Origin: Escherichia phage nasanit
Sequence record: PV245933.1
Length of the DNA stretch: 39,625 bases
Reading direction: 5' to 3' (one strand)
Shown here: in pieces, positions 1 through 18,138 of the stretch
How positions within the stretch are numbered: the first letter of the stretch is position 1
Layout of the letters: every line of letters starts with the position of its first letter
Program-made: the position numbers and the translations under genes
Notes under the pieces: generated by a model
What the model was told of the DNA's origin: nothing
The model's database searches: none
The model's input: the letters and a program-made list of their open reading frames with translations, nothing else

Positions 1-44
1 TGGAATACAACGAGGCCACGGATGGCTGACACTAGGAGGACATA

Positions 45-251
45 ATGTTGTCATTGGATTTTAACAACGAGGTAGTGAAGGCTGCTCCGATTGTAGGGAC
101 AGGGGTTGCCGATGGTGCTGCCAGACTGTTCTTCGGCCTGTCACTTAACGAGTGGTTCTATGTAGCCGCAATTGCCTACACAGTGGCTCAAATTGGTGCC
201 AAGGTAGTCGATGTGATTATCAAATGGAAGAAGGAGGGTAAAGATGTCTAA
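45..251 (+). CDS. 17.5: Holin, T7 gp17.5-like (type II holin)
   Basis: 68-aa ORF with AGGAGG SD about 8 nt upstream; hydrophobic core and basic C-terminus; close resemblance to T7-group holin as I recall it. Confidence 0.85.
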   Translation: MLSLDFNNEVVKAAPIVGTGVADGAARLFFGLSLNEWFYVAAIAYTVAQIGAKVVDVIIKWKKEGKDV

Positions 252-513
252 TGATAAATCTTTGATTCAATTCCTTGAGATGCTGGACACTGAGATGGCT
301 CAACGTATGCTGAAAGACCTTCAGGATGACGAGAAGCGCACACCTCAACTGTACAACGCAATCGGGAAACTATTAGAGCGCCACAAGTTCCAAGTCTCCA
401 AGTTACAGCCAGACCGTAACATCCTTGGTGGACTGGCAGATGGACTCGAAGAGTACCAGAACATGGTAGGTGCCGACGGTCTCACTGAAGATGAGAAGTA
501 CACGCTGAACTGA
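244..513 (+). CDS. 18: Terminase small subunit (DNA maturation protein A), gp18-like
   Basis: 89-aa ORF starting MSNDKSLIQFLEMLD, overlapping holin stop by 8 nt; T7 gp18 size and sequence pattern. Confidence 0.88.
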   Translation: MSNDKSLIQFLEMLDTEMAQRMLKDLQDDEKRTPQLYNAIGKLLERHKFQVSKLQPDRNILGGLADGLEEYQNMVGADGLTEDEKYTLN

Positions 514-516
514 TGG

Positions 517-560
517 AATAACTCAAGGCCACTACATCTAGTGGTCTTTATGATATTTCA
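517..560 (+). promoter_or_regulatory. Conserved processing hairpin (RNase III site-like, R18.5 position)
   Basis: AACTCAAGGCC...TAGTGGTCTTTATGATATT; member of an 8-copy hairpin family; stem pairs with G-U wobbles at RNA level. Confidence 0.45.
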
Positions 561-611
561 ACACAACTCACGGTGACGCTACGTGAAATCTGAAAATACG
601 GGAGGGTAGTT

Positions 612-1055
612 ATGCTCAAGAATTTAAAGAGCTACGCCATAATCGCTGCGTTTGCCTTGGGTATTACCCTTGCGTATAACCACGGATATGACAAAGCTAA
701 CACTAAATGGGAACAGGAGGTGCACAATGAGTACGTTAAGAAAGTTGAGGCGACTGCGGATAAACAGGCTGCTCTCAATGAAGTCTCACGACAATACCAA
801 GAAGACCTTGCGGCGCTGGAAGGCAGCACTGATAGGGTCATTAATGATTTGCGTAACGATGGTAAGCGGCTGCGTGTCAAACTATCAGCCACCTCACGAG
901 AACTCCAAGCTAACGGTGGATGCCTCGTTGATGGTCGAGCCGAACTTGACGAAGAGTTTAGTAAGCGTCTTATCGGAGTAACTCAAAGAGGGGATGCGTG
1001 GATTAAAGCGCTCCAAAATACAATAACTGAAATACAATCTAAGAAGGAGAAATAA
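612..1055 (+). CDS. 18.5: i-spanin (Rz-like), gp18.5
   Basis: 147-aa ORF, N-terminal TM helix then coiled-coil periplasmic domain; motif WEQEVHNEYVKKVEA typical of T7 gp18.5. Confidence 0.85.
   Translation: MLKNLKSYAIIAAFALGITLAYNHGYDKANTKWEQEVHNEYVKKVEATADKQAALNEVSRQYQEDLAALEGSTDRVINDLRNDGKRLRVKLSATSRELQANGGCLVDGRAELDEEFSKRLIGVTQRGDAWIKALQNTITEIQSKKEK
727..981 (+). CDS. 18.7: o-spanin (Rz1-like lipoprotein), gp18.7, embedded in +1 frame of 18.5
   Basis: 84 aa starting MSTLRKL inside ORF 652-981; lipobox-like VSGC followed by Pro-rich segment; embedded arrangement as in T7. Confidence 0.75.
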   Translation: MSTLRKLRRLRINRLLSMKSHDNTKKTLRRWKAALIGSLMICVTMVSGCVSNYQPPHENSKLTVDASLMVEPNLTKSLVSVLSE

Positions 1056-1056
1056 T

Positions 1057-1614
1057 ATGGCTGCTACAAACTCAAGAACCCGCACACTCTGGACCATCAA
1101 TGGTCGCTCACCAGACAGTCGTGATGTGTATGACCACAACAATATTGGTATTCGCGTTGGGCGTATCGACATCCCAGCTTCGGAGATGGTCAAGGTAGAT
1201 GGCTACTCTAAGGTTGAATACGTTGTTCAACTTAGCGATGGCACCACTGAGCAACATGCTACGTTCGAGACCCTTATGTCCACTTGGGGTGGCTCCGTCG
1301 AGTCTAAGCCGGGAAGCGGGTTCATGACGGTGTTCCTGAATGAGCAAAGCACTGAGCGACTCGGTATGGTTCGAATCGACGTATACAAAGAGTGGACTGG
1401 TGCTGACCCTGAACCTGAAGGTGGCATGGCTTCCTTAGTTAGCGCAACGCTTTCTGCGTCTGATAGTGAATTTGGTACACAGTTCGTGGATAGCGAAGGG
1501 AAGAGCGCTTCCGTTATGTTCCAACCTAGTAACATCGACGGGGCTGTATCTAAGACCGACACTATCAAGGCTCTTGAGAAGCGCATTGATGCCTTAGAGA
1601 AATCTGCCAAGTAA
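1057..1614 (+). CDS. Hypothetical protein, 185 aa, no family recognised
   Basis: Intact ORF; ATG 1 nt after 18.5 stop with AAGGAGA SD; ends 15 nt before gene 19; codon usage like neighbours; no TM segment; amphipathic C-terminus KALEKRIDALEKSAK. Confidence 0.6.
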   Translation: MAATNSRTRTLWTINGRSPDSRDVYDHNNIGIRVGRIDIPASEMVKVDGYSKVEYVVQLSDGTTEQHATFETLMSTWGGSVESKPGSGFMTVFLNEQSTERLGMVRIDVYKEWTGADPEPEGGMASLVSATLSASDSEFGTQFVDSEGKSASVMFQPSNIDGAVSKTDTIKALEKRIDALEKSAK

Positions 1615-1629
1615 CAATAGGAGGCCACA

Positions 1630-3387
1630 ATGTCTACTCAAGCAAACAAGAATGCGCTCATCGTGGCGCAACTTAAGGGTGACTTCGTGGCCTTCCTGTT
1701 CGTCTTATGGAAGGCTCTGAACTTACCTAAACCAACCAAGTGTCAGATTGATATGGCACGTACACTCGCTAATGGCGACCACAAGAAGTTTATCCTACAG
1801 GCGTTCCGTGGTATCGGCAAGTCCTTTATCACCTGTGCGTTCGTCGTGTGGGTCTTATGGCGTGACCCTCAACTTAAGGTGCTCATCGTGTCTGCCTCTA
1901 AGGAACGTGCTGATGCTAACTCCATCTTCATCAAGAACATCATCGACCTCCTTCCGTTCCTCTCTGAGTTGAAACCTCGACCGGGACAGCGAGACTCCGT
2001 GATTAGCTTCGACGTTGGCTTGGCGAAACCAGACCACTCACCCTCTGTGAAGTCTGTAGGCATTACTGGTCAGTTGACTGGTAGCCGTGCTGACATTATC
2101 ATCGCAGATGACGTTGAGGTTCCCGGCAACAGTTCTACAAGCTCTGCTCGTGAGAAGCTGTGGACACTGGTAACTGAGTTTGCTGCGTTACTTAAGCCGT
2201 TACCTACCTCTCGTGTTATCTACCTTGGGACACCTCAAACCGAGATGACTCTCTATAAGGAACTTGAGGATAACAAAGGGTACAGCACGGTAATCTGGCC
2301 AGCACAGTATCCACGTAATGATGCTGAGGCTCTCTACTATGGGGACCGCTTGGCTCCGATGCTTAAGGCTGAATACGATGAGGGCTATGAGTTACTTCGT
2401 GGTCAACCTACTGACCCTGTTCGATTCGATATGGATGACCTCCGTGAACGTGAACTCGAATATGGCAAAGCTGGCTACACTCTTCAGTTCATGCTTAACC
2501 CGAACCTTAGTGATGCCGAGAAGTACCCGCTACGGCTCCGTGACGCTATCGTGTGCGCTGTGGACCCCGAACGTGCCCCATTGTCTTACCAGTGGTTGCC
2601 GAACCGTCAGAACCGCAATGAGGAACTCCCTAACGTTGGTCTTAAGGGTGATGACATCCATGCGTTCCATACGTGCTCTTCTCGTACCGCTGAGTATCAG
2701 TCTAAGATTCTGGTCATTGACCCAAGTGGTCGTGGTAAGGATGAGACCGGGTACGCAGTCCTCTACTCACTTAACGGTTATATCTACTTGATGGAAGTCG
2801 GTGGGTTCCGTGGTGGTTACGATGATGCTACCCTAGAGAAGCTCGCTAAGAAGGCCAAGCAGTGGAAGGTACAGACAGTCGTCCATGAGTCCAACTTCGG
2901 TGACGGTATGTTCGGTAAGATTTTCTCTCCGATTCTCCTGAAGCACCATAAGTGTGCCTTAGAGGAAATCCGTGCTAAGGGCATGAAGGAGATGCGAATC
3001 TGCGATACTATCGAACCGTTGATGGGTGCGCACAAGCTGGTAATTCGTGATGAGGTTATTCGTGAGGACTACCAGACTGCTCGTGACCTTGATGGGAAAC
3101 ATGATGTTCGCTATAGTGCGTTCTATCAGATGACCCGTATGACCCGTGAGCGAGGCGCTGTGGCACACGATGACCGACTTGATGCTATCGCATTGGGTAT
3201 CGAATGGCTACGCGAGGGGATGCTTGTAGACAGCCGTGTAGGTGAAGAAGAGATGACCCTTGAGTTCCTTGAACACCACATGGAGAAACAGACCATTGGT
3301 GGCGACCAGATTCATAGCTATGATGTAGGAGGTGTGGACATCTACTATGAGGACGATGGGGACTCTAGCAGCTTCATTGAGTGGTAA
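1630..3387 (+). CDS. 19: Terminase large subunit (DNA maturation protein B), gp19
   Basis: 585 aa; Walker A-like AFRGIGKSF; strong overall similarity to T7 gp19 (T7 is 586 aa). Confidence 0.95.
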
Positions 3388-3476
3388 TATAGATAAGTAT
3401 GCGGGAAAGGTGCATAGGTAAGCACTTAGTACCGCTACGTTACCGTTAAGTAACTTACTGATATACATGAAGAAAT

Positions 3477-3499
3477 TAATACGACTCACTATTGGGAAG
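3477..3499 (+). promoter_or_regulatory. Phage RNAP promoter (phiOR position)
   Basis: TAATACGACTCACTATTGGGAAG; matches T7 promoter core except T at -1. Confidence 0.8.
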
Positions 3500-3655
3500 G
3501 GCACCCTAAGACAACTTAAAGACACTTAAAGACTGCATATGCAAAGTGCATACTTAGTGACTACTCTTAGAGACCCTTACAGTGTGGGATGATAGTAATT
3601 GTAATTACATCCCTACTATCAGTGTAACCATCAAGTATAACAAGGAGGACGCTCT

Positions 3656-3811
3656 ATGCGCTTACTATCCGTGCTCAAGACACTGGCAACGCATCGAGTG
3701 ACCTACAAATTTCTCGCTGTACTTGCTGCTTCCATCGGTCTCGCATCTAGTGTTGAACACATCGGTGAACTGGAGACTCTGCTTTGTTCTCTACTCACTT
3801 GTGTTCCTTAG
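3656..3811 (+). CDS. 19.5: gp19.5-like small protein (51 aa)
   Basis: ORF MRLLSVLKTLATHRVTYKF... with AAGGAGG SD; last gene before genome right end as in T7. Confidence 0.6.
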   Translation: MRLLSVLKTLATHRVTYKFLAVLAASIGLASSVEHIGELETLLCSLLTCVP

Positions 3812-3839
3812 ACTGCTCGTTGGCGCTTAACGCGCTCTT

Positions 3840-3877
3840 AGTGATTATGGTCGATATACATCTTCCCTATAATCACT
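3840..3877. repeat. Inverted repeat (9-bp arms AGTGATTAT / ATAATCACT) near genome right end
   Basis: Perfect 9-bp arms separated by 20 nt, read directly from sequence. Confidence 0.5.
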
Positions 3878-4084
3878 GTAAGAAGTCAACTCTAAGAGGT
3901 AGCCTTATGTATTCCTTAACGGTCTACAGGGTCTCTTAGGGTCTCTCACGTGGTCTAACCTTATGATAGCCACTCCAAGGATAACCTTATGAGAGACTTG
4001 ATGTACCCCTTTAAGAATCCTACAGAAAAATCTGAGTGGGTATCTCATAGTTCATACCAAGTGGTTTCCCCCTGTAGGTAACTC

Positions 4085-4187
4085 TGTGGATAACCTGAGG
4101 ATAACTCTGTGGATAACTTGTGGATAACTCTAGGTTAGAGGCTGTGTGGATAACTTTGGGTGAGACTGTTAGTAACTCTGTGGATAA
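4085..4187 (+). repeat. Array of five perfect TGTGGATAA 9-mers (complement TTATCCACA = consensus DnaA box) plus one imperfect copy
   Basis: Perfect copies at 4085, 4108, 4119, 4145, 4179; TGAGGATAA at 4096; all in the same orientation. Confidence 0.6.
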
Positions 4188-4207
4188 CTCTGTGTCTCTG
4201 TGTCCCT

Positions 4208-4214
4208 ATCTGTA
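4208..4214 (+). promoter_or_regulatory. Candidate phage-RNAP pause site (concatemer-junction type), ATCTGTA
   Basis: CCCTATCTGTAAG resembles the T7 class II pause/termination signal ATCTGTT at the T7 concatemer junction; one mismatch. Confidence 0.3.
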
Positions 4215-4366
4215 AGTGACCTTTGAGTTATCACCTTATGTTATCACCTTATGACCCTTTAAGTATCACCTTATGGCTGGTTATCCTTATGTTAACCTTC
4301 AGTCGGTGCCTTCAGTCCATAGACCTATCGTTGCCACTCTTAGACCAGCCTTAAATACCATACAGC

Positions 4367-4389
4367 TAATATGACTCACTATTGAGGAA
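4367..4389 (+). promoter_or_regulatory. Phage RNAP promoter (phiOL position), variant
   Basis: TAATATGACTCACTATTGAGGAA; degenerate relative to the other copies. Confidence 0.65.
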
Positions 4390-4472
4390 TAGCTAATACT
4401 GGTCATCTTCCTTATAGGGATAACTTAAAGACTACTAAAAGAGATACTTTGAGAATTCTTTAAGATTGAGTA

Positions 4473-4501
4473 TTGACATTGATAATAGCTTATGAGACTA
4501 T
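4473..4501 (+). promoter_or_regulatory. Sigma70-type early promoter (A1-like)
   Basis: TTGACA, 17-nt spacer, GACTAT. Confidence 0.5.
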
Positions 4502-4607
4502 AGCAACCGTTGAGAGACACAACGCTACCAACCACTAGACAAGACCGAGAGTTATCTAGTGAGGCTGAAGAGTCTCAAGTAGTCATCAACCAGACACACG
4601 AAAGTGG

Positions 4608-4636
4608 TTGACTCAACGAAAGCAATAACGTAGTAT
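4608..4636 (+). promoter_or_regulatory. Sigma70-type early promoter (additional)
   Basis: TTGACT, 17-nt spacer, TAGTAT. Confidence 0.45.
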
Positions 4637-4697
4637 AGCAGTCGTCAACAACTGGTCGCCCTCTGAAACAACATGAGGTGTCACGGTGAGAAAGGTG

Positions 4698-4727
4698 TTG
4701 ACAAGCAGTAAAGATAAGATGTAAGAT
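4698..4727 (+). promoter_or_regulatory. Sigma70-type early promoter (A2-like)
   Basis: TTGACA, 18-nt spacer, TAAGAT. Confidence 0.55.
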
Positions 4728-4857
4728 GTACGACATGCAATAAGAGAGAACGGATAGGAACTGCGAAACCTGCCGGATACTCGCCAAGGATGAGGCACTG
4801 CTTATTGGAGTATGCAGACACGATAAGCACCACGTTATCTTCTAGTCAAATTAAGTG

Positions 4858-4886
4858 TTGACACGGTAACGAAAGCACGATAAGAT
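4858..4886 (+). promoter_or_regulatory. Sigma70-type early promoter (A3-like)
   Basis: TTGACA, 17-nt spacer, TAAGAT; downstream sequence GTACCAC..AGTGAGTCACCACACTGAAAGGTGATGCGGTCTAACGAAACCTGACC resembles T7 A3 region. Confidence 0.55.
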
Positions 4887-5004
4887 GTACCACGAAATGA
4901 CGGAACAGTGAGTCACCACACTGAAAGGTGATGCGGTCTAACGAAACCTGACCAAAGACGCTCTTTAACAATCTGGATAATAGCTCTTGAGTGTACCGTA
5001 TAAG

Positions 5005-5050
5005 CGAATAACTCAAGGTCGCACTGAAAGCGTGGCCTTTATGATATTCA
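5005..5050 (+). promoter_or_regulatory. Conserved processing hairpin (RNase III site-like, R0.3 position)
   Basis: ATAACTCAAGGTCGCACTGAAAGCGTGGCCTTTATGATATTCA. Confidence 0.45.
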
Positions 5051-5079
5051 CTTAACGAACTAACATGAGGTAACACCTA

Positions 5080-5538
5080 ATGATTTTCACTAAAGAGCCT
5101 GCTAATGTCTTCTATGTACTGGTGTCAGCTTTCCGTTCCAACCTCGACGATGAGGTGAATATGAGTCGTCACCGCCACATGGTAAGCACTTTACGTGCCG
5201 CACCGGGTCTTTATGGCTCCGTTGAGTCAACCGATTTGACCGGGTGCTATCGTGAGGCAATCGCAAGCGCACCGACTGAGGAAAAAACGGTTCGTGTACG
5301 CTGCAAGGACAAGGCGCAGGCACTCAATGTTGCACGCTTAGCTTGCAATGAGTGGGAGCAAGATTGCGTACTGGTATACAAATCACAGACTCACACGGCT
5401 GGTCTGGTGTACGCTAAAGGAATCGACGGTTACAAGGCTGAACGTCTGCCGGGTAGCTTCCAAGAAGTGCCTAAAGGCGCACCGCTTCAAGGTTGCTTTA
5501 CGATTGATGAGTTCGGTCGCCGCTGGCAAGTACAGTAA
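5080..5538 (+). CDS. 0.3: S-adenosylmethionine-cleaving enzyme (T3 gene 0.3-type SAM hydrolase/lyase), anti-restriction
   Basis: 152 aa starting MIFTKEPANVFYVLVSAF; matches my recollection of T3 gp0.3 (152 aa), not T7 Ocr (117 aa, acidic). Confidence 0.8.
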   Translation: MIFTKEPANVFYVLVSAFRSNLDDEVNMSRHRHMVSTLRAAPGLYGSVESTDLTGCYREAIASAPTEEKTVRVRCKDKAQALNVARLACNEWEQDCVLVYKSQTHTAGLVYAKGIDGYKAERLPGSFQEVPKGAPLQGCFTIDEFGRRWQVQ

Positions 5539-5540
5539 GT

Positions 5541-5585
5541 GATAAACTCAAGGTCGCTCAATATGAGTGGCCTTTCATGATTATC
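5541..5585 (+). promoter_or_regulatory. Conserved processing hairpin (RNase III site-like)
   Basis: GATAAACTCAAGGTCGCTCAATATGAGTGGCCTTTCATGATTATC. Confidence 0.45.
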
Positions 5586-5611
5586 ATTTAACATGCAATA
5601 GGACTAACACC

Positions 5612-5812
5612 ATGAGTAAACTTCTGGCAACATCTAAAATCAAAGGTCAATGCACTGTAACACTGCGAGAGTATGATCACGGGGCAATGGGTAGCACCTA
5701 CGTTGTACGATACGGTAAACAAGTCACGCATTGGGTGAACGAGGTTTTGGCGCAAGAAGAATACCAAGCCTGCGTGATACACCAAGCAACATGTGCAGGC
5801 TGGAATGACTGA
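5612..5812 (+). CDS. Hypothetical early protein, 66 aa
   Basis: ORF MSKLLATSKIKGQC... with AGGA SD; the track start at 5567 lies inside the upstream hairpin and is rejected. Confidence 0.5.
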   Translation: MSKLLATSKIKGQCTVTLREYDHGAMGSTYVVRYGKQVTHWVNEVLAQEEYQACVIHQATCAGWND

Positions 5813-5859
5813 TGGCGCGATTTGCACGCACTGGACAATAGCCTTTTAGTCTAACCAGT

Positions 5860-5905
5860 GATAAACTCAAGGTCGCTCCTAGCGAGTGGCCTTTCATGAT
5901 TATCA
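5860..5905 (+). promoter_or_regulatory. Conserved processing hairpin (RNase III site-like), near-identical duplicate of 5541-5585
   Basis: GATAAACTCAAGGTCGCTCCTAGCGAGTGGCCTTTCATGATTATC. Confidence 0.45.
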
Positions 5906-5933
5906 CTTTGAAACAACGCACGGGATTAATATC

Positions 5934-6071
5934 ATGCTGAAACATTACGTCATGCCTATCCACACCAAGAACGGCGCTACAGTTTGCACACCTGATGGCT
6001 TCGCAATGAAACAACGAATCGAACGCCTTAAGCGTGAACTGCGCACAAATCGCAAGATCAACAATATCTAA
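5934..6071 (+). CDS. Hypothetical early protein, 45 aa, basic C-terminus
   Basis: ORF MLKHYVMPIHTKNG...; weak SD; track start at 5886 lies in the hairpin and is rejected. Confidence 0.4.
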   Translation: MLKHYVMPIHTKNGATVCTPDGFAMKQRIERLKRELRTNRKINNI

Positions 6072-6176
6072 ATCTAATTACATTTGACACTGGATAATGC
6101 ACGAAGTGAGCGCTAGCGACATCATGGGCGCTCTCTCTCCCTCTTAAAGTAAACTAACTAAATAGGACACAATCTA

Positions 6177-7274
6177 ATGAACTACACCGACATTCAGGCA
6201 CGTCTGGCAATCATCAAGTCTCTCCCGATTAGTGAACTGGACAAGCGCCAGCCTCTTTTGGTTGCACTGGCTGCTGACATCGTGAACGGTGAAACATGCG
6301 ATGGTGACGATACAAACGGGTCGCAGTGTCTTGAGTATCAGGACTGGTGGAACACCTTGGGCGCTCTCATGCGTGATGCAGGTTTTCGTATGTTGGGTAA
6401 TGGTCATTTTAGTGCGGCCTACTCGCATGAACTGTTACCGGGTCGAGTCGTCAAGGTTGGCTTTAAGAAAGAGGATTCAGGCGCTGCGTACACTGCGTTC
6501 TGTAGGATGCACCAAGGCCGAGCGGGTATCCCTAACGTCTATCACGTAGCACGTCATGCAGGTTGCTATACGGTCGTACTGGACCACTTAAAAAGCTGTG
6601 ACGACGATAATTATGACCATGAGGCATACGCTGACCTCGCACGTTACTTTGTGGAGTCGGATTGCCATGACGCAAGCGACTTTGCACCGGGTGACTACGA
6701 GTTCATCGAGACTTGCAAAATGATTCGTGAGTTCTTCAAAGGGATTGCATCTTTCGACATGCATCGCGGGAACATTATGTTCGACGATAACGATGTTCCG
6801 TACATCACTGACCCGGTTAGTTTCTCACATGACCGTGAACGTGAGGGCGGTTTGCCTCTGGACCCTGAAGAACTGCTGGCTGAGGTCGAGGCTGTAGCGC
6901 AAGAACGCATGATTGAACGTTGCCGCAACCGCAAGGCCAAGTGTGACCCTAACGGCTCCTTTCAGGTTAACCGCAAGGCCGCAATGAAACGCCGCAAGCG
7001 TAACCGTAAGTTACGTGCTAAACATGCAGCGGAAGGAATGCACCAGTTTGTCAAAGGGCGGCTTGAGCGTAGAGCTATTGACCGAAATGAACGCCGTGCT
7101 GAGATGTTTATGGGGTCTGCATGGCATTACGCATGGTTGCATAATGGTAACGCAACGTTCCGCAAGGTTGAACAAGTGAACGGCCTCAAGTGGCAACTAG
7201 GGGACCGCCTAGCAATCCAAGCGGGTCTCCCTTTGAACATCGACAAGTTACTTGACGCACAACTGAAAGGCTGA
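6177..7274 (+). CDS. 0.7: Ser/Thr protein kinase and host transcription shut-off protein, gp0.7
   Basis: 365 aa; N-terminal kinase region with MLGNGHFSAAYSH, KVGFKKEDSGAAYTAFCRM, FDMHRGNIMF; Arg/Lys-rich C-terminal domain as in T7 gp0.7. Confidence 0.9.
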   Translation: MNYTDIQARLAIIKSLPISELDKRQPLLVALAADIVNGETCDGDDTNGSQCLEYQDWWNTLGALMRDAGFRMLGNGHFSAAYSHELLPGRVVKVGFKKEDSGAAYTAFCRMHQGRAGIPNVYHVARHAGCYTVVLDHLKSCDDDNYDHEAYADLARYFVESDCHDASDFAPGDYEFIETCKMIREFFKGIASFDMHRGNIMFDDNDVPYITDPVSFSHDREREGGLPLDPEELLAEVEAVAQERMIERCRNRKAKCDPNGSFQVNRKAAMKRRKRNRKLRAKHAAEGMHQFVKGRLERRAIDRNERRAEMFMGSAWHYAWLHNGNATFRKVEQVNGLKWQLGDRLAIQAGLPLNIDKLLDAQLKG

Positions 7275-7277
7275 TAA

Positions 7278-7322
7278 GGTGTATCTTCAAGGTCGGCACT
7301 GACTGCTGGCCTTTATAGATAA
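7278..7322 (+). promoter_or_regulatory. Conserved processing hairpin (RNase III site-like, R1 position)
   Basis: TCTTCAAGGTCGGCACTGACTGCTGGCCTTTATAGATAAAC. Confidence 0.45.
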
Positions 7323-7347
7323 ACTTTCTTAACAACGTGAGGCAACA

Positions 7348-9999
7348 ATGACTAACGTAATCAACGCACCAAAGAACGACTTCTCTGACATCGCTAACGC
7401 AATCATGCCGTACAACATTCTGGCTGACCATTACGGTGCACAGCTTGCAGCTACGCAGTTACAGCTTGAGCACGAAGCGCACACTGAGGGTGAGAAGCGT
7501 TTTCTTAAGGCAATGGAACGTCAAATCAAAGCGGGTGAGTTCGGTGATAACGCAGTGGCTAAACCGCTCCTGTCATCTCTCGCACCGAAGTTTATCGAGG
7601 CGTGGAACACTTGGTTCACTGAAGTGGAAGCGAAGCGTGGCAAGCGTCCAGTGGCTTACAATCTGGTACAGAAGGTTGCACCTGAAGCTGCTGCATTCAT
7701 CACACTGAAGGTCACGCTGGCTTGCTTGACGAAAGAAGAGTTCACCAACCTGCAATCGGTCGCTACTAAGATTGGTCGTAGCATTGAAGATGAACTGCGT
7801 TTTGGTCGCATCCGTGACGAAGAAGCGAAGCACTTTAAGAACCACGTACAGGAGGCACTGAACAAGCGCGTTGGCATCGTCTACAAGAAAGCATTCATGC
7901 AAGCCGTAGAGGGTAAGATGCTTGATGCTGGTCAACTGCAAACCAAGTGGACTACATGGACACCTGAAGAATCAATTCACGTTGGTGTGCGCATGTTGGA
8001 ACTGCTCATCGGGTCTACTGGTCTCGTTGAGTTACACCGCCCGTTCGCTGGGAACATCGAGAAGGATGGCGAGTACATCCAGTTAACAGAACAATATGTA
8101 GACCTGCTGTCTAAACGTGCTGGTGCACTGGCTGCAATCGCTCCGATGTATCAGCCTTGCGTGGTCCCTCCGAAGCCTTGGACTTCTCCGGTTGGTGGTG
8201 GCTATTGGGCGGCTGGTCGCAAGCCTCTCTCTCTGGTTCGTACTGGTAGCAAGAAGGGACTGGAACGTTACAACGATGTGTACATGCCTGAAGTTTACAA
8301 GGCGGTGAACATCGCACAGAATACTCCTTGGAAGATTAACAAGAAGGTTCTGGCAGTGGTCAACGAGATTGTGAACTGGAAGCATTGCCCGGTTGAAGAT
8401 GTACCTGCTCTCGAACGTGGTGAACTGCCTGTCAAACCTGAAGACATCGACACGAACGAAGCGGCTCTGAAAGCGTGGAAGAAAGCGGCCTCCGCAATCT
8501 ATCGCAAAGAGAAAGCACGAGTTTCTCGCCGCATGAGCATGGAGTTCATGTTAGGTCAGGCCAATAAGTTCGCACAGTTCAAAGCTATCTGGTTCCCAAT
8601 GAACATGGACTGGCGCGGTCGTGTGTATGCTGTGCCGATGTTTAACCCGCAAGGCAACGACATGACCAAAGGCTTGTTGACGCTCGCTAAAGGTAAACCA
8701 ATCGGTGTCGATGGGTACTACTGGCTGAAGATTCACGGTGCTAACACTGCTGGCGTGGACAAGGTGGACTTTGCAGAACGCATCAAGTTCATTGATGACA
8801 ACCATGAGAACATCATGAGCGTAGCTGCTGACCCGATTGCTAACACTTGGTGGGCCGAGCAAGACTCTCCGTTCTGCTTCCTCGCGTTCTGCTTCGAGTA
8901 TGCAGGAGTCCAGCACCACGGGATGAACTACAACTGCTCTCTTCCGCTGGCGTTTGATGGTAGCTGCTCCGGTATTCAGCACTTCTCCGCAATGCTTCGT
9001 GATGAAATTGGTGGTCGCGCTGTTAACTTACTGCCGAGCAAGGAAGTCCAAGACATCTACCGCATCGTAGCGGAACGTGTCAACGAGATTCTGAACCAAG
9101 ATGTTATCAACGGGACCGACAACGAAGTAGAGACCGTGACCAACAAGGACACAGGGGAAATCACTGAGAAGCTCAAGCTGGGTACTAAAGAACTAGCTGG
9201 TCAGTGGCTGGCCTACGGTGTGACCCGCAAGGTCACTAAGCGTTCGGTTATGACGTTGGCTTACGGTTCCAAAGAGTACGGATTCCGTGACCAAGTTCTT
9301 GAGGATACCATTCAGCCAGCTATCGACGATGGCAAGGGCTTGATGTTCACTCAACCGAACCAAGCGGCTGGCTATATGGCTAAACTGATTTGGAACGCGG
9401 TAACGGTGACAGTGGTCGCAGCGGTTGAAGCAATGAACTGGCTGAAGTCTGCGGCTAAACTTCTAGCTGCTGAAGTCAAGGACAAGAAGACCAAAGAGGT
9501 TCTCCGCAAGCGCTGCGCGGTACATTGGGTTACTCCTGATGGCTTCCCGGTCTGGCAGGAATACAAGAAGCCAGTACAGACCCGCTTGAACCTGATGTTC
9601 TTAGGCCAGATTCGTCTACAGCCTACCGTGAACACCAACAAGGATAGCGGAATTGATGCTCGTAAGCAGGAGTCAGGCATCGCACCTAACTTTGTCCACT
9701 CAATGGATGGAAGCCACCTGCGCATGACTGTGGTCCGCTCCAATGAGGTCTACGGTGTGGAATCGTTCGCACTGATTCACGACTCCTTTGGTACTATCCC
9801 TGCTGATGCTGGCAACCTGTTTAAAGCAGTGCGCGAAACGATGGTCAACACTTACGAAGAGAACGATGTACTAGCAGACTTCTATGAGCAATTTGCTGAC
9901 CAGTTACATGAATCACAGCTTGACAAGATGCCTGAGATGCCAGCTAAAGGTTCTCTGGACCTGCAAGAAATCCTTAAGTCAGACTTTGCGTTTGCCTAA
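7348..9999 (+). CDS. 1: Single-subunit DNA-dependent RNA polymerase, gp1
   Basis: 883 aa (same length as T7 RNAP); C-terminal ...SDFAFA; specificity loop PTVNTNKDSGIDARKQESGIAPNFVHS retains Asn at the T7 N748-equivalent position. Confidence 0.97.
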   Translation: MTNVINAPKNDFSDIANAIMPYNILADHYGAQLAATQLQLEHEAHTEGEKRFLKAMERQIKAGEFGDNAVAKPLLSSLAPKFIEAWNTWFTEVEAKRGKRPVAYNLVQKVAPEAAAFITLKVTLACLTKEEFTNLQSVATKIGRSIEDELRFGRIRDEEAKHFKNHVQEALNKRVGIVYKKAFMQAVEGKMLDAGQLQTKWTTWTPEESIHVGVRMLELLIGSTGLVELHRPFAGNIEKDGEYIQLTEQYVDLLSKRAGALAAIAPMYQPCVVPPKPWTSPVGGGYWAAGRKPLSLVRTGSKKGLERYNDVYMPEVYKAVNIAQNTPWKINKKVLAVVNEIVNWKHCPVEDVPALERGELPVKPEDIDTNEAALKAWKKAASAIYRKEKARVSRRMSMEFMLGQANKFAQFKAIWFPMNMDWRGRVYAVPMFNPQGNDMTKGLLTLAKGKPIGVDGYYWLKIHGANTAGVDKVDFAERIKFIDDNHENIMSVAADPIANTWWAEQDSPFCFLAFCFEYAGVQHHGMNYNCSLPLAFDGSCSGIQHFSAMLRDEIGGRAVNLLPSKEVQDIYRIVAERVNEILNQDVINGTDNEVETVTNKDTGEITEKLKLGTKELAGQWLAYGVTRKVTKRSVMTLAYGSKEYGFRDQVLEDTIQPAIDDGKGLMFTQPNQAAGYMAKLIWNAVTVTVVAAVEAMNWLKSAAKLLAAEVKDKKTKEVLRKRCAVHWVTPDGFPVWQEYKKPVQTRLNLMFLGQIRLQPTVNTNKDSGIDARKQESGIAPNFVHSMDGSHLRMTVVRSNEVYGVESFALIHDSFGTIPADAGNLFKAVRETMVNTYEENDVLADFYEQFADQLHESQLDKMPEMPAKGSLDLQEILKSDFAFA

Positions 10000-10006
10000 C
10001 GGAATC

Positions 10007-10029
10007 TAATACGACTCACTATTGGGAGA
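10007..10029 (+). promoter_or_regulatory. Phage RNAP promoter (phi1.1A position)
   Basis: TAATACGACTCACTATTGGGAGA. Confidence 0.8.
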
Positions 10030-10090
10030 CCCTTGGGGGTTTCCCTACTTTAAGATAACTTTAAGTTTAACTTTAAGAGGAAACATAATC

Positions 10091-10648
10091 ATGTTTACTT
10101 TCATCACTTCAGTAGGCGCTCTCGTAGCAACCATTCTTGCAGCAACATACTACAACCGTTCAAAGGTATTTCTCACCAAGCTAATCAAAGAAGAGAAGAA
10201 CTCTCACGCACTCAAAGAGAGACTTGAAGATGGGTGGCGAGAGAGGCAGGAACTAGCTGGTCGAATCCGTACTTTAGAGTTCGAACAACAATATGACATG
10301 TCGAACCAACGAGAACTCATTGAGCGTCTACGCGCTGAGGCAATGGAGTACCGCAAGGAACTTAAAGAGGCAAAGAGTACCATCCGTGAGTACACATACA
10401 GTGACATCACGTCTATCAAGTTTACTGCTCACATCCCGGATGCTGGATGGAAGCGCACTGAGTTCAAGCTAGGCATAGGGTCTTGCGGCAAAGAGGTTAC
10501 GTGTTTGCACTGGAAAGAACAGTCGGACCGCTACCTGCTGACACAGACGTGCACTGATGGTGAGCGCAAAGAGTTCACCTATTATAAGAAAGACGTAGCT
10601 GGTCGCATTGAGATTGCACGTAAGGTTGCAGACAATACGACTCACTAA
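10091..10648 (+). CDS. Hypothetical membrane-anchored protein, 185 aa (gene 1.05 position)
   Basis: Start MFTFITSVGALVATILAATYY (TM helix) after AAGAGGA SD; coiled-coil-like middle; Cys-containing C-terminus; track start 10022 rejected (no SD, inside promoter leader). Confidence 0.6.
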   Translation: MFTFITSVGALVATILAATYYNRSKVFLTKLIKEEKNSHALKERLEDGWRERQELAGRIRTLEFEQQYDMSNQRELIERLRAEAMEYRKELKEAKSTIREYTYSDITSIKFTAHIPDAGWKRTEFKLGIGSCGKEVTCLHWKEQSDRYLLTQTCTDGERKEFTYYKKDVAGRIEIARKVADNTTH

Positions 10649-10655: not shown

Positions 10656-10663
10656 CACTGAAA

Positions 10664-10708
10664 GTTAAACTCAAGGTCATCTACATGGTGGCCTTCATGA
10701 TTAACTGT
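10664..10708 (+). promoter_or_regulatory. Conserved processing hairpin (RNase III site-like, R1.1 position)
   Basis: GTTAAACTCAAGGTCATCTACATGGTGGCCTTCATGATTAAC. Confidence 0.45.
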
Positions 10709-10737
10709 CAACGATACTACCAAGAGGAAATAACATT

Positions 10738-11159: not shown

Positions 11160-11179
11160 TACGACTCACTATTGCGAGA
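11157..11179 (+). promoter_or_regulatory. Phage RNAP promoter (phi1.3 position)
   Basis: TAATACGACTCACTATTGCGAGA, overlapping the 1.2 stop codon. Confidence 0.75.
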
Positions 11180-11180
11180 G

Positions 11181-11222
11181 GTAAACTAAAGGTCATCTAC
11201 ACGGTGGCCTTTGTGATTAACT
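11181..11222 (+). promoter_or_regulatory. Conserved processing hairpin (RNase III site-like, R1.3 position)
   Basis: GTAAACTAAAGGTCATCTACACGGTGGCCTTTGTGATTAAC. Confidence 0.45.
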
Positions 11223-11264
11223 TTTGCTTAAACATTAACCAATACACACTAAAGGAGTTCCATT

Positions 11265-12296: not shown

Positions 12297-12478
12297 TGCT
12301 TATCTTTGACGAGAACGGTTGGAGAGTGTATCAACACCCACACCTGATGATATTCCACATATCAAAGTGGATGGAAGGAGATGACCGGAGAAGCTACGGG
12401 AGAACTTGGGACTACTTTACTGTCCATGAGTGCCATAGTATTAAGGAAGTCAAAGAGTACCTACGAAACAATATGTAA
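12296..12478 (+). CDS. Hypothetical protein, 60 aa (gene 1.4 position)
   Basis: ATG overlaps ligase stop; intact ORF. Confidence 0.45.
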   Translation: MLIFDENGWRVYQHPHLMIFHISKWMEGDDRRSYGRTWDYFTVHECHSIKEVKEYLRNNM

Positions 12479-12486
12479 AGACAAAT

Positions 12487-12520
12487 GGTCAGTCCTTAAC
12501 GGGCTGGCCTTTTTGTGTTT
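12487..12520 (+). terminator. Intrinsic terminator (early terminator TE position)
   Basis: RNA hairpin GGUCAGUCC-UUAAC-GGGCUGGCC (G-U wobbles) followed by UUUUUGUGUUU. Confidence 0.6.
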
Positions 12521-12543
12521 CTATACGACTCACTATGGAGGAA
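12521..12543 (+). promoter_or_regulatory. Phage RNAP promoter (phi1.5 position), variant
   Basis: CTATACGACTCACTATGGAGGA. Confidence 0.6.
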
Positions 12544-17778: not shown

Positions 17779-18081
17779 ATGGCTATTAAATTCCCCGGTA
17801 ACACTATCCGTCTGTCCGACACCATCGACCAGTATGCTCGTCGGGTGCACATCAACGTCCGTAATGGCAAGGTCACTTTGGTCTACCGCTGGAAGGACCA
17901 TAAGTCCACCAAGGCGCACACACAGCGTGTGACTCTGGATGACACACAGGCAGGTCGTCTGCTGGCTTCCGTTGCTGTAGCCGCTACTGTGGCTGTAGGT
18001 GAAGACAATGTGCGTCAGGTTCTGCTGGGTAAGACCGTGGAGTCTGAGGGCAACATGCTTGCTGACAAGTGTGAAGAGTAA
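17779..18081 (+). CDS. Hypothetical protein, 100 aa
   Basis: Intact ORF with TAGGAG SD. Confidence 0.6.
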   Translation: MAIKFPGNTIRLSDTIDQYARRVHINVRNGKVTLVYRWKDHKSTKAHTQRVTLDDTQAGRLLASVAVAATVAVGEDNVRQVLLGKTVESEGNMLADKCEE

Positions 18082-18082
18082 G

Positions 18083-18127
18083 AGTTAAACTAAAGGTCAT
18101 CTTAACGGGTGGCCTTCGTGATTAACT
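18083..18127 (+). promoter_or_regulatory. Conserved processing hairpin (RNase III site-like, R4.7 position)
   Basis: GAGTTAAACTAAAGGTCATCTTAACGGGTGGCCTTCGTGATTAAC. Confidence 0.45.
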
Positions 18128-18138
18128 TTTGTATGAAA

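Follow-up and report, generated by a model that had tools for sequence, protein, structure and literature searches.

The early region of Escherichia phage nasanit raises the question of what two small open reading frames, each preceded by a near-identical hairpin, are doing between an anti-restriction gene and the later part of the early operon (positions 5080-6176 of sequence record PV245933.1, analyzed here over its whole length of 39,625 nucleotides, hereafter the window). A preliminary description had read this arrangement as a duplicated cassette carrying two unfamiliar proteins; the span it gave and the elements it listed (a 152-aa gene, a 66-aa ORF, a 45-aa ORF and hairpins) are all present. 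The region very probably belongs to the early (class I) operon of a T7-like member of the Studiervirinae, an operon processed at hairpins and mosaic between T3 and T7. Its layout is ordinary for T7/T3-like phages: nothing in the region is new, and both small genes have already been catalogued. The closest whole genome found, by megablast of the whole window, is that of Escherichia phage Carena (OR769031; Berlinvirus), which is 93.6% identical over 91% of the query. Promoters A1-A3 of T7 and T3 are used by the host RNA polymerase and drive the early operon. A promoter scan places three sigma-70-type promoter-like sites, equivalents of T7/T3 A1-A3, on the + strand at 4608-4636, 4698-4727 and 4858-4886, and T7 positions 713-921, including promoter A3, align to window positions 4857-5076. 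From these A1-A3-type promoters, host RNA polymerase would transcribe the region rightward.

The first gene of the region, gene 0.3 (5080..5538, + strand), encodes a 152-aa T3-type S-adenosylmethionine lyase (SAMase). Its product matches Pfam PF23780 over residues 13-151 (E 2.5e-42; 144 bits, with the cut-off at 28) and is identical to the T3 SAMase (PDB 7OCK chain L) at 150 of 152 residues, differing at residues 23 and 62, which bears out the earlier identification of the gene as encoding a T3-type SAM-cleaving enzyme and not Ocr. The protein is 100% identical to gp0.3 of phiYeO3-12, with all eight nucleotide differences between the genes being synonymous. The acidic pair E67/E68 is present, as counted in the translation, and E68 is required for T3 SAMase activity according to mutagenesis (PMC7877911). 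The T3 enzyme cleaves SAM, yielding MTA and homoserine lactone, and counteracts both type I restriction and BREX (PMC7877911, PMC8406200, bioRxiv 10.1101/2023.02.27.530186). By analogy, gp0.3 would remove SAM, disarming both defenses; the SAM lyase of T3, the type to which gp0.3 belongs, also inactivates MetK. Some relatives carry Ocr and SAM lyase together.

Gene 0.3 is flanked by hairpins that extend well beyond the two originally noticed. Copy A, at the R0.45 position (5534..5595, + strand; repeat unit 5538-5589; covariance model 75.3 bits; apical loop CAATATG), adjoins the gene 0.3 stop codon, and copy B, the R0.5 counterpart (5853..5914, + strand; repeat unit 5857-5908; 74.0 bits; apical loop CCTAGCG), lies 319 nt further on; both are putative RNase III sites, with E values of about 1e-16. 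The two copies are identical at 46 of 52 positions (88%), so the claim of a near-identical hairpin before each small ORF stands, with a repeat unit of 52 nt in place of the about 45 nt first given. The count of two copies does not stand. Further, diverged copies, likewise putative, are found on the + strand upstream of gene 0.3 (R0.3-type, 4999..5059; 69.8 bits, E 5e-15; z = -2.73) and upstream of gene 1 (R1-type, 7273..7333; 57.7 bits; z = -4.42), and four more occur elsewhere in the window. The eight strong covariance-model matches in the window are all on the + strand, with none between 5914 and 7273; the six that were placed against ORFs (at 4999, 5534, 5853, 7273, 10657 and 11173) are intergenic, and the other two begin at 509 and 18077. 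The core pattern TCAAGGTCG-N8-14-GGCCTTT occurs four times in the window, against 0.00 expected.

Folding and covariation both indicate that these elements are maintained as RNA structures. Copies A and B form two-helix hairpins with an internal loop (-24.8 and -21.8 kcal/mol; z = -5.25 and -3.95, respectively), and none of 200 shuffles folds as well. Their minimum free energy folds show RNase III-site architecture: the upper helix is rich in G+C, the lower one in A+U, and the internal loop between them is asymmetric. In an alignment of 28 homologous hairpins, pairing is kept in 93% of cells, compared to 27-50% in slid controls, and compensatory changes are found in 12 of 20 pairs, including nine of the ten pairs of the lower helix; the observed values are reached by none of 500 shuffles. 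The upper stem-loop of copy B, AAGGTCGCTCCTAGCGAGTGGCCTT, is identical at 25 of 25 positions to T7 1441-1465, which we take to be the mapped R0.5 site; the T7 record V01146 carries no RNase III site annotation. R0.5 of T7 was reportedly mapped as a cleavage site by Dunn and Studier in 1983. The annotation of phiYeO3-12 names R0.3 (as 'putative RNase III site R0.3'), R0.45 and R1 at equivalent hairpins. Judged by fold, covariation and these correspondences, the hairpins belong to the family of T7-type RNase III sites, of which the window has eight copies or more. The earlier reading of them as resembling processing sites is thereby upheld, given that copy B shares its upper stem-loop with the T7 element and that the equivalents in phiYeO3-12 are annotated as RNase III sites. 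A scan of the whole window at Rfam gathering thresholds returned no match, which says nothing against this assignment because T7 RNase III sites are not represented by any Rfam family.

It is extremely unlikely that the hairpins are instead intrinsic terminators or attenuators, or protein-binding or recombination elements without a role at the RNA level. They are intergenic G+C-rich stem-loops, as terminators would be, and a terminator scan gives one match within hairpin B, though on the minus strand. On the + strand, the sequence 3' of the stems reads CCTTTCATGATT and lacks a U-tract, and the lower helix and asymmetric internal loop, which would be needless in a terminator, are conserved through the compensatory changes described above; the terminator reading is rejected on these grounds. 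All hairpin copies lie on the transcribed strand, and the stem-loop that copy B shares with the T7 R0.5 element argues against non-processing readings more generally.

With the hairpins read as RNase III sites, the boundaries of the early messages can be predicted. Five early RNase III sites are given for T7 (PMC4858673). Internal loops confine the cut to a single phosphodiester, and protective hairpins stay on the 3' ends (PMC1540722). RNase III cleavage and the resulting mRNA boundaries in nasanit are predictions from sequence: host RNase III would cut the polycistronic RNA once per hairpin, within the internal loop, and each cut would leave the upstream message with a protective 3' hairpin. 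This would yield monocistronic mRNAs for gene 0.3 and, at about 320 nt, for the 66-aa gene, a dicistronic mRNA for the 45-aa gene and gene 0.7, and a gene 1 mRNA. The proposal that each small ORF is released as its own mRNA therefore fits the 66-aa gene but not the 45-aa gene, as no hairpin separates the latter from gene 0.7 and one shared mRNA is expected for both. The non-coding spacer between them (6072..6176, + strand) contains neither a + strand ORF nor an RNase III-type hairpin, and part of it (6090-6151) is missing from Enterobacter phage PZJ0206. An inverted repeat at 6080-6150 was considered as an extra processing site and rejected (fold z = +0.68, with no covariance-model match). Gene 0.7 (6177..7274, + strand) encodes a 365-aa serine/threonine protein kinase and host transcription shut-off protein (PHROG 2828, E 1.8e-178), 53% identical to T7 gp0.7, and the RNA polymerase gene, gene 1 (7348-9999), lies downstream of the R1-type hairpin.

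Both small ORFs behave as real genes, since they differ from their homologues chiefly in the third position of codons (18 of 27 nucleotide differences for the 66-aa ORF compared with phiYeO3-12, and 18 of 22 for the 45-aa ORF compared with T7). Neither protein had been recognizable at first, and neither has a match in Pfam or NCBIfam or a useful one in a PDB sequence search; both are nonetheless identified by comparison with phage proteins. The 66-aa protein is gp0.45 of the T3/phiYeO3-12 family, encoded by gene 0.45 (ATG at 5612, stop ending at 5812; 5612..5812, + strand) directly 3' of the R0.45-type hairpin. It matches PHROG 6500, a family without an assigned function, at positions 1-66 of 66 (E 1e-44) and is identical to phiYeO3-12 gp0.45 at 57 of 66 residues. 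Relatives are found in 157 phage records, most at 80-100% identity, with those of HZ2R8 and P483 at 100%. An AlphaFold model (pLDDT 92) has four strands and one helix, and a Tyr-Gly pair, His57 and Cys61 are invariant in the family. A BFVD structure search with gp0.45 returned uncharacterized phage proteins only, the neighborhoods of two distant relatives are phage-like contigs with small unnamed genes that offer no functional clue, and a literature search on gp0.45 function yielded nothing beyond one table entry. Profile matches within long Flg_new/InlB B-repeat proteins were set aside as reflecting similarity between beta-hairpin repeats. On present evidence, gp0.45 may be a small cytoplasmic early factor that binds a host protein.

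The 45-aa protein, encoded at 5934..6071 on the + strand (ATG at 5934, stop ending at 6071), is a short form of T7 gp0.6A that lacks the 0.6B frameshift extension. It is identical at 41 of 45 residues (91%) to the translation of T7 1636-1770, annotated as gene 0.6A (tblastn E 2e-21), and matches PHROG 8393 at profile positions 1-45 of 111 (E 2.2e-28); its homologues carry Pfam PF26851 in precomputed annotation, and in the cassette maps its gene sits between an R0.5-type site and gene 0.7. The strongly basic tail remarked upon earlier is the conserved C-terminal segment of gp0.6A. A weak match of T7 gp0.6A to an NCBIfam RiPP family (E 0.06) was dismissed as noise. Neither the full-length 0.6A (53 aa) nor its 0.6B extension (111 aa) is present in the window, where the ORF ends at 45 aa and 6072-6176 holds no + strand ORF; similarity to T7 extends only to 6067, immediately ahead of the stop codon.

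This truncation, together with a weak Shine-Dalgarno sequence (GGGA) and the variable non-coding spacer that follows, would suit a decaying remnant of gene 0.6 that has lost its C-terminus, the 0.6B extension and its translational coupling to gene 0.5. Such decay is improbable, however, as 45-aa forms recur in public data from many independent phages and metagenomes, and codons that differ from T7 only synonymously outnumber amino-acid-changing ones by 15 to 4. Residues 1-40 are also the part conserved in distant Aeromonas, Dickeya and large E. coli myophages, and because these residues are what distant phages retain, the short form is read as the conserved core of the protein. According to three sources that cite Molshanski-Mor et al. 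2014 (PMC6965359, PMC5624674, bioRxiv 10.64898/2026.09.14.751387), T7 Gp0.6 is reported to bind or inhibit MreB and to round cells. The 45-aa protein is the conserved core of T7 gp0.6A, and its most likely target is the cell-shape system of MreB; the targeting of MreB by the short form is an extrapolation from T7 Gp0.6. The suggestion that the small proteins belong to the host-takeover class fits the 45-aa protein in this respect, as its family is reported to target MreB.

The remaining question is how two such similar hairpins came to stand 319 nt apart. A recent tandem duplication of a 'hairpin plus small gene' unit, after which the downstream genes diverged or were replaced, would account for copies A and B being the most similar hairpin pair in the window (88%, compared to 62% for copy A and R0.3) and for the additional C that both carry in their internal loops, on the 3' side, a base absent from T7 R0.5, Carena and PZJ0206 copy B. 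This origin is nevertheless highly improbable. The copies are not mutual closest relatives: for all their 88% identity to each other, copy A is one base from PZJ0206 copy A, its upper stem-loop also being found in HZ2R8, PZJ0206 and L016, while copy B matches hairpins of P483, L016, P694 and phiYeO3-12 at 92-94% identity and shares its upper stem-loop with T7 R0.5. These identities already point against sister sequences, and local gene conversion between the copies accounts better for the extra C that they share. The 0.45 and 45-aa genes are unrelated to each other, and each has orthologues of >90% identity in other phages. Finally, directly upstream of copy B lies a decayed 3' remnant of a T7-type gene 0.4, recognized by alignment to T7 (5836..5856, + strand); the homologous stretch runs from this remnant through the hairpin, with T7 1408-1480 being 86% identical to window positions 5836-5909 over 74 nt. 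The idea of a duplicated cassette is accordingly withdrawn, as each copy is closer to hairpins of other phages than to its partner and copy B follows the relic of gene 0.4.

As judged by these alignments and by cassette maps of 26 loci, the layout is a recombinational mosaic in which T3-type and T7-type cassettes meet at hairpins, rather than a local duplication. Its first piece is T3-type (R0.3, gene 0.3, R0.45 and gene 0.45), its second T7-type (the gene 0.4 tail, R0.5 and gene 0.6A, with gene 0.5 deleted) and its third Berlinvirus-type (0.7, R1 and gene 1), with cassettes exchanged at the hairpins by what would be homologous recombination. Alignments of the window to Carena, covering 4428-5589 and 5857-7500, overlap on the single hairpin of Carena. 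The window and HZ2R8 are 96% identical over a stretch whose limits are precisely hairpins A and B (5538-5915), despite HZ2R8 carrying Ocr and 0.4 upstream, and the hairpin-0.45-hairpin unit is found in about 18 phage records. Because such alignments commonly stop where a conserved element stops in any event, this clustering of breakpoints shows conserved linkers flanking variable cassettes. Carena and L016, which both lack 0.45, have differing apical loops in their hairpins (B-type and A-type, respectively), and crossovers would therefore have occurred at different points inside the hairpin; these apparent hybrids are the sole direct pointer to crossover within hairpins.

Identification of the two 'unknown small ORFs' as 0.45 and 0.6A improves the annotation of the region and amends the earlier notion of a new, duplicated cassette, and the comparison shows early genes of T7-like phages being swapped as hairpin-bounded units. 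We tentatively propose, as a possibility falling somewhat short of even, that the hairpins do double duty in RNA processing and as recombination linkers, that early genes are portable cassettes with their own sites and that gp0.45 is a host-takeover or anti-defense factor. If so, T7-like phages could freely shuffle SAM lyase, Ocr, 0.4, 0.45, 0.5/0.6 and the membrane-like '0.6A'. A literature search for RNase III sites as recombination junctions found no prior statement. Swapping of hairpin-bounded units bears on counter-defense adaptation in T7-like phages and on engineering of the early region, and gp0.45, as an uncharacterized family with a confident predicted fold and wide phage distribution, is a reasonable candidate for host-target screens. 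Both are modest leads and are not specific to this window.

The window shares different parts of its early region with different named phages. T7 (V01146) has the order 0.4, R0.5, 0.5, 0.6A/B, 0.7, R1, 1, and is matched by the window in the succession R0.5, 0.6, 0.7, R1, gene 1, as well as in having 0.6 and 0.7 within one RNase III-delimited segment; T7 carries 0.5-0.6-0.7 on one mRNA, comparable to the 0.6A-0.7 mRNA expected here. However, T7 has Ocr as gene 0.3 where the window has SAM lyase, and T7 genes 0.4 and 0.5 are absent from the window save for the 0.4 relic. T7 gp0.6A has eight more C-terminal residues than the window protein, which stops at 45, plus the 0.6B frame. Conversely, the window has a hairpin-bounded 0.45 cassette that T7 lacks, and its internal loop is one C longer than that of T7. 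The phiYeO3-12/T3 order is R0.3, 0.3 SAMase, R0.45, 0.45, 0.6A/B, 0.7, R1; window positions 4881-5814 are 92% identical in nucleotides to phiYeO3-12, with hairpins at the R0.3 and R0.45 positions, although the apical loop of hairpin A reads CAATATG in the window and CCATGCG in phiYeO3-12. Beyond 0.45 the two part: phiYeO3-12 continues directly, with no second hairpin, into an unrelated membrane-like '0.6A', whereas the window has the second hairpin and the T7-type 0.6A. Carena is short of exactly one hairpin-plus-0.45 unit, its single hairpin carrying the B-type loop. Enterobacter phage PZJ0206 (MT625440) has the same layout as the window, namely SAM lyase, hairpin A, 0.45 (left unannotated), hairpin B, the 45-aa gene and 0.7, and is 98.6% identical to it over 5538-5960, with its hairpins likewise spaced 319 nt apart.

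The stretch is a circularly permuted T7-like phage genome, with Escherichia phage Carena (Berlinvirus) as its best whole-genome match (93.6% identity over 91% of the window's first 25 kb). The permutation, judged against the physical genome of T7-type phages, shows at positions 1-4400, with late genes, including a 585-aa ORF (1630-3387) matching the Carena terminase large subunit, coming ahead of the early promoters; the genome ends and terminal repeat should lie roughly at 3400-4400. The early region, of an ordinary type that has been sequenced before, comprises three sigma-70-type promoter-like sites located by promoter scan (4608-4886), a hairpin (4999-5059), gene 0.3 (152 aa; 5080-5538), hairpin copy A (5534-5595), gene 0.45 (66 aa; 5612-5812, start 5612), hairpin copy B (5853-5914), a 0.6A-type gene (45 aa; 5934-6071, start 5934), a 105-nt spacer (6072-6176), the 0.7 kinase gene (6177-7274), a hairpin (7273-7333) and the phage RNA polymerase gene (gene 1; 7348-9999), all four hairpins being covariance-model hits on the + strand. 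T7 has only about 100 nt separating gene 1 from the R1.1-type hairpin, an interval that here holds an ORF (10022-10648; about 185 aa from its first ATG) whose hydrophobic N-terminus leads into a charged helix-like stretch.

The preliminary description took gene 0.3 to encode a T3-type SAM-cleaving enzyme, and this assignment holds. The product matches Pfam PF23780 (S-adenosylmethionine lyase; E 2.5e-42), shares 150 of 152 residues with the T3 SAMase chain (PDB 7OCK), is 100% identical to phiYeO3-12 gp0.3 and retains both E67 and E68. The T3 enzyme is a lyase rather than a hydrolase, and mutation of E68 abolishes complementation (PMC7877911); it inactivates MetK and defeats BREX (PMC8406200; bioRxiv 10.1101/2023.02.27.530186).

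Hairpin copies A (repeat unit 5538-5589) and B (5857-5908) are identical at 46 of 52 positions and spaced 319 nt apart. Each folds into a G+C-rich upper helix, an asymmetric internal loop and an A+U-rich lower helix, at -24.8 kcal/mol (z = -5.25) for copy A and -21.8 kcal/mol (z = -3.95) for copy B. None of 200 shuffles folds as well, bearing out two hairpin copies that each precede a small ORF, and for their core motif the window has four occurrences, with 0.00 expected. Copy B shares its upper stem-loop (AAGGTCGCTCCTAGCGAGTGGCCTT) base for base with T7 1441-1465, a segment lying between T7 genes 0.4 and 0.5 that we take to be the position of site R0.5. In phiYeO3-12, a T3 relative, the equivalent hairpins are annotated as putative RNase III sites R0.3, R0.45 and R1; annotation and stem-loop identity both favour the earlier proposal that these hairpins are processing sites. 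Across 28 aligned hairpins from the window and ten relatives, 93% of cells pair under a two-helix model, and shifting the partner by 1-3 columns lowers this to 27-50%; compensatory changes occur in 12 of 20 pairs, and 0 of 500 shuffles reach any observed measure. Scanned with a covariance model of this alignment, the window gives eight strong hits, each on the + strand (509, 4999, 5534, 5853, 7273, 10657, 11173 and 18077). All eight belonged to the training alignment, so their scores chiefly confirm that the window holds no further match. The further T7-type hairpins at 509-568, 10657-10715, 11173-11231 and 18077-18136 (52-60 bits), together with a weak one at 12473-12529 (14 bits; +), are probably R18.5, R1.1, R1.3, a middle-region site and R3.8, respectively. 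Both early copies carry an extra C on the 3' side of the internal loop (5576-5579 and 5895-5898), reading CCTTTCATGA in contrast to CCTTTATGA in T7, Carena and copy B of Enterobacter phage PZJ0206; gene conversion between the two may account for it.

Internal loops limit RNase III cleavage to one phosphodiester, leaving a protective 3' hairpin behind (PMC1540722). Processing would yield one mRNA apiece for gene 0.3 and the 66-aa gene, and the 45-aa gene would share a common mRNA with the 0.7 kinase gene, the covariance-model scan of the window having found no hairpin site between 5914 and 7273. The suggestion that each small ORF is released as its own mRNA would thus be only half right, applying to the 66-aa gene and not to the 45-aa gene. 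A sigma-70-like site, TTGAAA-16-TATCAT (10/12; 5908-5935), extends into the start of the 45-aa gene and corresponds in position to T7 minor promoter B, which lies just downstream of R0.5; this site may be a chance match, since the scan gave 6 promoter-like sites against 4.5 expected. The spacer before gene 0.7 is variable: it contains an imperfect inverted repeat (GAGCGC...GGCGCTC) without significant fold, PZJ0206 lacks 6090-6151, and a 17-nt stretch (6119-6135) recurs at 88% within gene 0.7 (6352-6368).

Both small proteins, initially considered unrecognisable, belong to known phage families. The 45-aa protein is a short gp0.6A, 91% identical to T7 1636-1770 (annotated gene 0.6A) and matching positions 1-45 of 111 in PHROG 8393. 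For T7 Gp0.6, citing passages attribute an MreB interaction and rounded or lemon-shaped cells to Molshanski-Mor et al. 2014 (as cited in PMC6965359, PMC5624674 and bioRxiv 10.64898/2026.09.14.751387). Unlike T7, the window form lacks the last 8 residues of gp0.6A and the entire 0.6B frameshift extension, T7 homology stopping at 6067. Such 45-aa versions recur in public data and are not peculiar to nasanit, and in distant phages (those of Aeromonas and Dickeya, and large ones of E. coli) the conserved part is residues 1-40. T7 gene 0.5 is absent from the window, and the sequence upstream of the 45-aa ATG (5909-5940; GGGATTAATATCATGCT) looks more like the initiation region of T7 gene 0.5 (GGGAGTAATGTATATGCT) than like the sequence upstream of T7 0.6A, which suggests that gene 0.5 may have been excised cleanly, leaving 0.6A directly behind an R0.5-type hairpin.

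The 66-aa protein is gp0.45 of T3/phiYeO3-12 (PHROG 6500; E 1e-44); phages HZ2R8 and P483 encode it with 100% identity, and it is present in 157 phage records. Third codon positions hold 18 of its 27 differences from phiYeO3-12, and 18 of the 22 between the 45-aa ORF and T7, a bias indicating that both are real genes under purifying selection. Exhaustive profile searching revealed that it belongs to a larger family of phage proteins of 60-88 aa (39 with E up to 0.001; broad set P0020-P0057); in an alignment of 26 sequences from this family, Y34, G35, A47, H57 and C61 never vary. With this alignment, AlphaFold predicts four strands and one helix (pLDDT 92; all five models at least 88.9). BFVD structure matches are uncharacterised phage proteins only, so that structure prediction supplied a fold and no function, and a literature search for gp0.45 found no described function. 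The predicted C-terminal helix contains a His-x3-Cys arrangement suggestive of a metal or active site; our best guess is a small early factor binding a host protein. This uncharacterised protein, not specific to the window, is one of two modest leads.

The two hairpin-ORF units had been read as a duplicated cassette. Each copy, however, has nearer relatives in other phages than in its counterpart, and homology breakpoints sit at the hairpins. Alignments with Carena (4428-5589 and 5857-7500) overlap on its single hairpin, homology with HZ2R8 (5538-5915; 96%) begins and ends exactly at the two hairpins, and alignments with the related loci L008, L015, L016 and P694 stop at 5588-5592. Gene 0.45 is missing from both Carena and L016, whose apical loops differ, pointing to crossovers at different points within the hairpin. 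Just upstream of hairpin B, about 20 nt (5836-5856) align to the final codons of T7 gene 0.4, a gene itself absent from the window, and are a recombination relic of its 3' end. Together, these features argue for a mosaic layout rather than duplication in the nasanit genome, with T3-type, T7-type and Berlinvirus-type blocks apparently joined at hairpins. The earlier observation, enzyme call and processing-site idea survive; the unknown proteins and duplicated cassette do not.

Hairpins and genes were mapped in 26 related loci. The window and PZJ0206, 98.6% identical over 5538-5960, share the full order SAM lyase, hairpin A, 0.45, hairpin B, 0.6A, 0.7, and about 18 phage records contain the hairpin-0.45-hairpin unit. 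Loci L015, L016 and L017 (P694) carry Ocr-type and SAM-lyase-type gene 0.3 together, each in its own hairpin-bounded cassette. RNase III hairpins of T7-like phages appear to serve as cassette boundaries, the second modest lead and likewise not specific to the window: Carena has SAM lyase, hairpin B, 0.6A; L016 has Ocr, hairpin, SAM lyase, hairpin A, 0.6A; HZ2R8 has Ocr, 0.4, hairpin A, 0.45, hairpin B, about 465 nt, 0.6A; P483 has SAM lyase, hairpin, 0.45, membrane-like protein; P694 has SAM lyase, hairpin, Ocr, 0.4, hairpin B, 0.45, membrane-like protein; and T7 has Ocr, 0.4, R0.5, 0.5, 0.6A/B.
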